Of a stretch of 64,000 bases of DNA, positions 2,948 through 3,146 are shown in pieces. The translations under genes were made by a program, and so were the position numbers. The DNA lies in assembly GCA_017633255.1 (NCBI GenBank), contig JAGBPS010000034.1:21152-85151 (forward strand), in the 5' to 3' direction. The stretch comes from Bacteroidales bacterium (GTDB lineage: Bacteria > Bacteroidota > Bacteroidia > Bacteroidales > WCHB1-69). Numbering within the stretch: position 1 is the stretch's first letter; each line of letters begins with the position of its first letter. The notes below the pieces were generated by a model. The model was not told where the DNA came from and ran no database searches. It was given only the letters and a program-made list of their open reading frames with translations.

Positions 2948-2974
2948 TAAAATCCAACAAGTACAGGTAAAAAC

Positions 2975-3008
2975 AAACGGCAGACTCTAAAGAATCTGCC
3001 GTTTTTAT
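2975..3008 (+). terminator. Rho-independent terminator of ORF1
   Basis: AAACGGCAGA (2975-2984) pairs with TCTGCCGTTT (2995-3004), which runs into a T tract. Confidence 0.8.
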
Positions 3009-3089
3009 TATGCCCAAGGTGTCTATTTCATCAAAGCCGTGGCGGAGGGCAATGTGCTGGCGGTAAGGAAGGTGGTGAAGAACCGGTAA
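3009..3089 (+). pseudogene. Orphan 3' fragment of a T9SS CTD-coding gene
   Basis: Translates YAQGVYFIKAVAEGNVLAVRKVVKNR*, i.e. the GxYxxK...RKxxK end of a type A CTD. No start or 5' part is present. Confidence 0.7.
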
Positions 3090-3114
3090 ATAAGAATAAA
3101 TGATATGCAATTGA

Positions 3115-3146
3115 ATGTGGAGACGGTGCATGCGCCGTCTCCACAT
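3115..3146. repeat. REP-like palindrome, possible bidirectional terminator
   Basis: ATGTGGAGACGG-tgcatgcg-CCGTCTCCACAT, perfect 12-bp arms, between convergent 3' ends. Confidence 0.75.

Follow-up and report, generated by a model that had tools for sequence, protein, structure and literature searches.

How does the end of a T9SS sorting domain come to stand, without a gene of its own, directly behind the terminator of a gene that already carries a complete sorting domain? The question is raised by a locus of a Bacteroidales genome (G000), in a window of 64,000 nt (the whole stretch of DNA that was studied; G000:C40:21152-85151), where the following features meet; the last of them lies outside the window, and G007 is another genome of the same genus.

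Window 2..2947, plus strand: 3′ two thirds of ORF1, the foreign cargo; the whole gene (G000:C40:19704-24098) encodes 1464 aa
Window 2729..2944, plus strand: ORF1's own complete type A CTD (PF18962 match at C40:23880-24086, 53.8 bits)
Window 2975..3004, no strand assigned: terminator-like hairpin between an A run and a T run; the foreign segment has its 3′ end here
Window 3005..3023, plus strand: right junction zone, with BLASTN homology to a G007 gene from 3018 and codon-level likeness back to 3009
Window 3009-3089, plus strand: orphan tail, the last 25 codons of a resident T9SS type A CTD, followed by one codon of read-through and by TAA
Window 3113..3146, no strand assigned: REP-type palindrome between the tail and queH, with a counterpart at the same place in G007
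Window 3156..3692, minus strand: queH (epoxyqueuosine reductase; PF02677, 1.3e-61), convergent with the tail, the conserved right flank
C40:18753-19697, just upstream of ORF1: gene of a secreted tail-collar protein of 314 aa

Translation of positions 3009-3089 gives YAQGVYFIKAVAEGNVLAVRKVVKNR*, which corresponds to the final strands of a type A sorting domain of the T9SS, and the terminal β-strand motif is present at the very C-terminus of this peptide (own-genome tail HMM; CTD end of G007). An orphan CTD tail behind the terminator of ORF1 had been recognised in the first-pass annotation, made from the letters alone, and it is confirmed here: the tail starts 4 nt 3′ of the hairpin (13 pairs, 6 of them G-C; -15.7 kcal/mol, z -4.08), which is itself preceded by the ORF1 stop codon at 2945-2947, and an HMM of the C-terminal 32 aa from 54 terminal CTDs in G000, from which the fragment was excluded, gives it E 5.7e-7 and 30.5 bits in a search of 63,309 six-frame segments, with matches unlike CTD tails beginning at E 0.12. 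General profiles are less responsive to it, since TIGR04183 (NCBIfam) aligns residues 3-25 of the tail to the last strands, positions 51-72 of 72, with E 0.017 and 15.1 bits, below the curated cut-off of 23 bits, and Pfam gives no match to the 26-aa peptide at E up to 10. The tail is a piece of a member of the T9SS type A CTD family (TIGR04183/PF18962), and is not itself a member; it fits the last strands of that domain, and its ortholog in G007 has a full CTD, but unlike a working CTD it comprises only about one third of the domain, without start codon or cargo. With so little of the domain left it is unable to act as a secretion signal. Its stop-to-stop frame of 32 aa has no start codon (no in-frame ATG, GTG or TTG was seen before the Y) and no signal-peptide-bearing cargo protein is attached to it, and the tail is most likely non-coding now.

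The tail is also distinct from the end of ORF1's own CTD, as had been claimed, with only 38/75 nt and 6/25 aa identical, and the claim that it is GC-richer stands as well (0.53 vs. 0.37 for ORF1; genome 0.46). Among about 57 CTD tails of G000 it is the sole orphan, the only other short CTD frame in the genome being interrupted by an internal TAG. The CTDs at G000:C26:642-863 and C33:642-863 closely resemble each other and stand at an equal offset from the contig starts, and one of them has an in-frame TAG; they may represent a duplicated region or a pseudogene.

Metagenome-type assembly (44 contigs) and a shift of composition right at the junction could suggest a chimera formed at a repeated CTD or REP. 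However, position 3008 is bridged by contigs of 4 of 4 runs compared in full, from 4 studies, one of the contigs having 0 differences over 1306 nt and another 110 differences over 1780 nt (a strain about 6% diverged). In runs with about 0.6 of the sampled words, of which part were compared, the contigs end within the tail or REP region and say nothing about the junction. Moreover, the sequence left of the junction is non-repetitive and both flanks of the AT-rich stretch are syntenic host genes, which are neighbours in relatives. As contigs of four independent runs span it, the junction is no assembly artefact, and the probability left to a chimera is negligible. On the right flank, the REP palindrome that the annotation had placed after the tail is found at 3113-3146; it folds at -26.2 kcal/mol (z -6.3) and belongs to a family, GTAGAGACG-N10-CGTCTCTAC, with 57 strict and 68 relaxed copies in G000. 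Further downstream, window 7659-11456 on the minus strand holds a T9SS cargo gene of 1265 aa with its own CTD (C40:28819-29031), 4.5 kb from the orphan tail.

What lies on the left of the junction has come from elsewhere. ORF1 contains two InlB-type B repeats besides its own CTD (Pfam Flg_new_2, 1.5e-23; Por_Secre_tail, 3.9e-12), and in the 314-aa protein a phage tail-collar domain is recognised both by Pfam (4e-21) and by PHROG (tail collar fibre, 6.9e-33); the GC content of this cargo is 0.37-0.43 vs. 0.46 for the genome. Matches to ORF1 occur in 60 of the 152 genomes of the family, nearly all of them to its C-terminal repeats only, and full-length relatives were found in just three of the 152 (G051, G163 and G060), none of them within the genus. 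Identity is 69% over aa 1-1359 in G051, 44% over aa 1-1454 in G163, where the protein has the same length of 1464 aa, and 76% over aa 1-196 in G060, where the gene stands at a contig end. The tail-collar gene stands ahead of the ORF1 relative in each of these genomes and in 4/4 metagenome loci. Composition and distribution support the view that ORF1 and the tail-collar gene form a foreign, AT-rich and horizontally acquired pair. No donor sharing the last 770 nt of ORF1 and its terminator at DNA level was found in the protein search of 152 genomes or in the metagenome scan (4 loci). The relatives in G051 (L042:1133-6484) and at L068:1100-6466, of 1783 and 1788 aa, are chimeric, i.e., ORF1-like to about aa 1359 and then continued by Ig-like repeats and by a CTD of the subtype to which the orphan tail belongs, and their C-terminal part resembles that of a protein encoded on contig C14 of G000 (31% over 500 aa). 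This long form looks derived, since the distant G163 likewise has the 1464-aa architecture of ORF1, own CTD included. At L071 a serine-recombinase-like ORF, recognised by eye, lies 1.25 kb downstream of the ORF1 relative; it was not counted as evidence.

The comparison of the queH locus among relatives indicates what may have stood at the site before. queH was found, in synteny, in 8 of the 9 other genomes of the genus. In five of them (G001, G002, G003, G004 and G009) the gene order is M16 peptidase, glyS, o313 (a beta-barrel outer-membrane gene), queH and prolyl oligopeptidase, and only 16-69 bp separate the start of o313 from the stop of queH, i.e., the site is empty. In G005, the closest relative by its flanks (97% identity), the site measures about 1 kb and contains a HepT/MntA pair and the structured element described below, but neither cargo nor tail; in G006 the stretch compared ends before the far flank. 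In G007 the site extends over 7.2 kb and carries, on the strand opposite to queH, genes of a 128-aa CTD protein, of a 923-aa protein without Pfam family and of a 1189-aa GLUG/fn3 protein, which has a full CTD (48.2 bits) and ends ...YANGVYFIKAVADGNVLAVRKVVKN*.

It is the end of this 1189-aa gene that the tail matches best, with 65/75 nt and 23/25 aa identical, vs. 50-55/75 nt for three paralogs in G000 and for the G051 gene. The two sequences remain homologous past the stop codon, across the intergenic stretch and the REP and along queH (83.7% over 736 nt, counted from window 3018; 453/537 nt identical in queH alone), and the codon changes in the tail relative to G007, 7 synonymous vs. 2 non-synonymous, suggest that it was under selection for most of its divergence. 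The differences are not spread evenly, as 6 of the 10 fall within 3009-3023, the first 15 nt (hypergeometric P 0.003), where the likeness is seen at codon level from 3009 onwards (YAQGV in G000, YANGV in G007). These data support the identification of the tail as the displaced remnant of a resident T9SS gene orthologous to that of G007. The resident bodies have been lost: the cargo bodies of G007 have no counterpart in G000, where only aa 1159-1189 of the 1189-aa protein match C40, and for the 5′ half of the broken gene G000 offers only domain-level likeness and 68% identity to a broken paralog on contig C10 over aa 1054-1188, absences that are not proven in a genome 92.5% complete. The displacement that had been proposed in the first-pass annotation is upheld by the intact ortholog in G007, by the five empty congener sites and by the full-length ORF1 relatives outside the genus, and the site is variable in its cargo, as the annotation had expected; an insertion into an otherwise preserved gene does not hold, for the foreign cargo has taken the place of the resident gene body, and neither a matching 5′ half nor a duplicated core was found in the genome. 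In run X8 a contig about 91% identical to window 3024-3336 has, in the 16 letters upstream of 3024, intact CTD codons (~YTNGV), and a G007-like state probably coexists in that sample.

The left limit of the foreign sequence lies at a second conserved feature, upstream of the window, which is often accompanied by HepT/MntA genes:

L040:6470-6655 (G000:C40:18470-18656), plus strand: structured RNA-like element of about 185 nt, left of the cargo
L032:6082-6865, minus strand: HepT/MntA pair directly upstream of the element
G000:C14:52769-53486, minus strand: HepT/MntA pair directly upstream of the element
G000:C10:47002-47409, plus strand: HepT/MntA pair directly upstream of the element

In the element a small hairpin is followed by a long irregular one, and this by the conserved stretch GTTCACGA and a T run. 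The folding energy is -59.9 kcal/mol (z -5.45), and in an alignment of 12 sequences 17 of the 37 predicted pairs show compensatory changes. A search of L040:5400-13000 against Rfam (E up to 1) gave nothing on the element, and only chance, hairpin-like matches of microRNA models on the REP. With a covariance model from the same alignment, 5-9 copies per genome were detected in 9 of the 10 genomes of the genus (7 in G000), most of the best-scoring copies having been in the training alignment and thus matching by construction. Copies occur in other genera as well. The element often comes after HepT/MntA and before secreted-protein genes or variable small genes. G000 and G007, in both of which the HepT/MntA pair is absent at this site, are 93% identical through the element, and past its T run only a loosely similar, AT-rich, promoter-like stretch follows, so that the foreign sequence begins at the end of the element. 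The copies on C14 and C10 of G000 come after a HepT/MntA pair and each precede a T9SS gene (or a broken one) which ends in the same CTD subtype and a REP. What such paralogous modules have in common is confined to the element region (76-80% identity) and the stretch from the CTD downstream (72-83%), no DNA likeness being detected between their cargo; among the modules the CTDs are 57-68% identical in aa, and an element is linked to 5 of the 6 CTD copies most similar to that of G007. By these comparisons, the conserved ends of a paralogous module family are formed by the element and the CTD subtype.

Replacement of cargo between these ends is not confined to the queH locus. At the tlyA-like/tadA-like locus of G001, orthologous to that of C14 in G000, the long hairpin of the element is missing and so is the cargo body. 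Small and unrelated genes (HicAB-like genes and a 226-aa gene) stand in their place, and a complete CTD has been kept:

L067, reverse strand, 2804-3094 of the reversed locus: in G001, a complete CTD of that subtype standing as an orphan (96-aa ORF, 103-aa frame)

Homology resumes here about 40 nt before the CTD, whereas in G000 the breakpoint lies 25 codons before the stop and in G051 more than 400 aa upstream; the T9SS gene on C10 of G000 is split into two frames. Cargo in this module family has been replaced more than once, at different breakpoints, and its variation at this and at the paralogous locus agrees with what the annotation had foreseen.

Different breakpoints bear on the boldest part of that annotation, i.e., that CTD-coding DNA serves as a recombination or attachment site for the exchange of secreted cargo, as in the cassette arrays of polymorphic toxins. 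Several observations would fit: the modules share only the 5′ element and one CTD subtype around unrelated cargo, G001 retains a complete CTD beside replaced cargo, the ORF1 relatives of G051 and L068 are fused to Ig-like repeats and this very subtype, and 3 of the 29 copies of the subtype in the genus lie in frames of at most 174 aa, all three at element modules. Nevertheless, no two of the three replacement events have their breakpoint at the same place relative to the CTD, there is no hybrid between the tail and ORF1's CTD, and BLASTN of 2948-3146 against the genome revealed no duplicated core (the second match on C40 is the palindrome's own reverse). No integrase or recombinase stands nearby either: the three tyrosine recombinase genes of G000 (PF00589) are on C26, C6 and C21, none of them on C40, C14 or C10, resolvase genes (PF00239) were not found in the genome, and on C40, where the island has no ORFs other than the tail-collar gene and ORF1, neither a tyrosine or serine recombinase nor a Y1 transposase was detected. 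The identity of paralogs, 67-83%, is low for frequent homologous exchange. In polymorphic toxin loci (Rhs, CdiA-CT) orphan C-terminal modules are displaced 3′ gene ends downstream of the current gene, and the tail resembles them in exactly this position; unlike those loci, the present one has no array, immunity gene, shared recombination core or toxin domain, and G000 contains no tandem orphan 3′ modules, only the single tail. An attachment site in the CTD is, on balance, quite unlikely, and the proposed cassette array finds no counterpart here.

Breakage could instead have been caused by the REP palindromes, possibly with a REP-associated Y1 transposase, the tail having survived a break beside a REP embedded in the CTD. 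REP elements are multi-copy palindromes, with which Y1 transposases are associated, and the palindromes found here resemble them in being short, present in 57-68 copies and stably folded, in a genome which has Y1_Tnp genes; they differ in that some copies lie within coding sequence:

G000:C14:49422-49661, in-frame REP-derived palindrome in coding sequence
G000:C10:49184-49423, the same
G000:C18:29907-30119, the same
G000:C11:60134-60346, the same
G000:C43:2376-2588, the same
L029, about 7190-7213, the same

In G007 a REP lies inside the CTD, 25 nt upstream of the G000 breakpoint, with another at the left edge of the cargo, and in the cargo-free G005 a single REP joins the element to queH. Of the 68 REPs of G000, 10 are found between 120 nt before and 200 nt after a terminal CTD stop, vs. 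0.5 expected under uniform placement, a null that is generous as REPs are intergenic. However, the G000 junction has no recognisable REP half-site, and the three Y1 genes (PF01797) stand on other contigs, C30 and C21; breakage at REPs is an improbable explanation. That the tail arrived with the donor DNA, as a remnant of an older CTD of ORF1, would agree with the ORF1 relatives of G051 and L068, whose terminal CTD is of this subtype (55/75 nt identical to the tail), and with the first 15 nt being unusually unlike G007. Yet the tail has its greater likeness to the G007 gene at the site itself (65/75), with which it is continuous past the stop codon, its GC content is not that of ORF1, and G163 also has the 1464-aa form with a CTD of its own (alignment to aa 1454); an origin in the donor is highly improbable. 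The in-frame REP reads ...VETQNFASLQ... in the CTD of G007 and ...ADARGASLQ... in the CTDs of C14 and C10, and stretches of this kind (...SLQ or ...SPLK) are found behind internal CTD-like domains in several large proteins.

The tail is, in our view, probably a non-functional scar of a resident T9SS cargo gene, left when a two-gene foreign unit replaced the module from the element to 25 codons before the stop. According to this model, the ancestral site between o313 and queH would have held the element with a promoter region, cargo ending in one CTD subtype, and a REP, an arrangement that is still present in G007. In the lineage of G000, the AT-rich unit of the tail-collar gene and ORF1, with its own CTD and terminator, would then have replaced everything from just past the element. 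On the left side a homologous crossover may have occurred in the conserved element, where incoming DNA could have paired; such pairing is possible because the element also precedes the tail-collar gene in G060 and L069. On the right side the join would be illegitimate, the terminator abutting the middle of the CTD with no homology. Homology-facilitated illegitimate recombination, in which a homologous anchor on one side is combined with a non-homologous join on the other, operates in the uptake of foreign DNA, and the locus would correspond to it, with the element as putative anchor and a non-homologous right join. A single homologous crossover in the element with an illegitimate join on the right is the most likely of the routes, although we put it forward tentatively: the sequences establish that the tail is orthologous to the G007 gene end, that the cargo is foreign, that the resident bodies are lost, that the site varies and that the junction is real, but as no donor was found, the route is one that we infer, and an insertion followed by a deletion could have given the same result.

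Two features do not follow from such a scar. The clustering of differences in the first 15 nt of the tail is unpredicted by it and could reflect a crossover with another copy of the CTD subtype, and a purely accidental join does not predict that the ORF1 relatives of G051 and L068 end in that same subtype. The cluster, taken together with the REP embedded in the CTD of G007, would be compatible with a part played by REPs, or by another subtype copy, in the making of the junction.

The nearest published case found is the family of KLIKK proteases of Tannerella forsythia, in which different cargo domains are joined to a nearly identical CTD, and whose authors propose that present or transferred genes were fused to shared N- and C-terminal coding sequences (PMC4404884). 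The likeness lies in different cargo with a common CTD. The differences are that the shared 5′ end is here a non-coding structured element instead of a signal peptide with an N-terminal extension, that the CTDs of the modules are not near-identical, and that a remnant is found instead of a fusion. Among titles and the openings of abstracts in the literature, no paper on orphan CTD tails or on CTD-anchored cargo exchange was found, a weak indication that this idea is not in print.

The tail alone would be an ordinary scar of gene replacement, and it is the surrounding module that is the part of interest. Surface-protein genes of uncultured rumen bacteria turn over in modules with fixed ends, receiving foreign cargo from other genera. 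A broader and rather doubtful reading is that rumen Bacteroidales carry cargo-exchange modules, in which the element and the REP-bearing CTD subtype act as homology anchors, cargo is replaced also across genera, and orphan CTDs mark incomplete exchanges; the structured RNA-like element, which has no Rfam family, would in that case be a previously undescribed one. A dedicated recombination site in the CTD or in the element is not supported by the sequences compared. If the module ends truly guide exchange, this would explain the quick diversification of T9SS cargo repertoires and would provide a handle for finding recently acquired surface proteins. A second type of element was seen at G000:C21:132797-132974 and at orthologous sites in G002, G004, G005, G007 and G009; it edges a small variable region before a conserved 385-aa gene, in which HigBA-like and other short genes differ between genomes.
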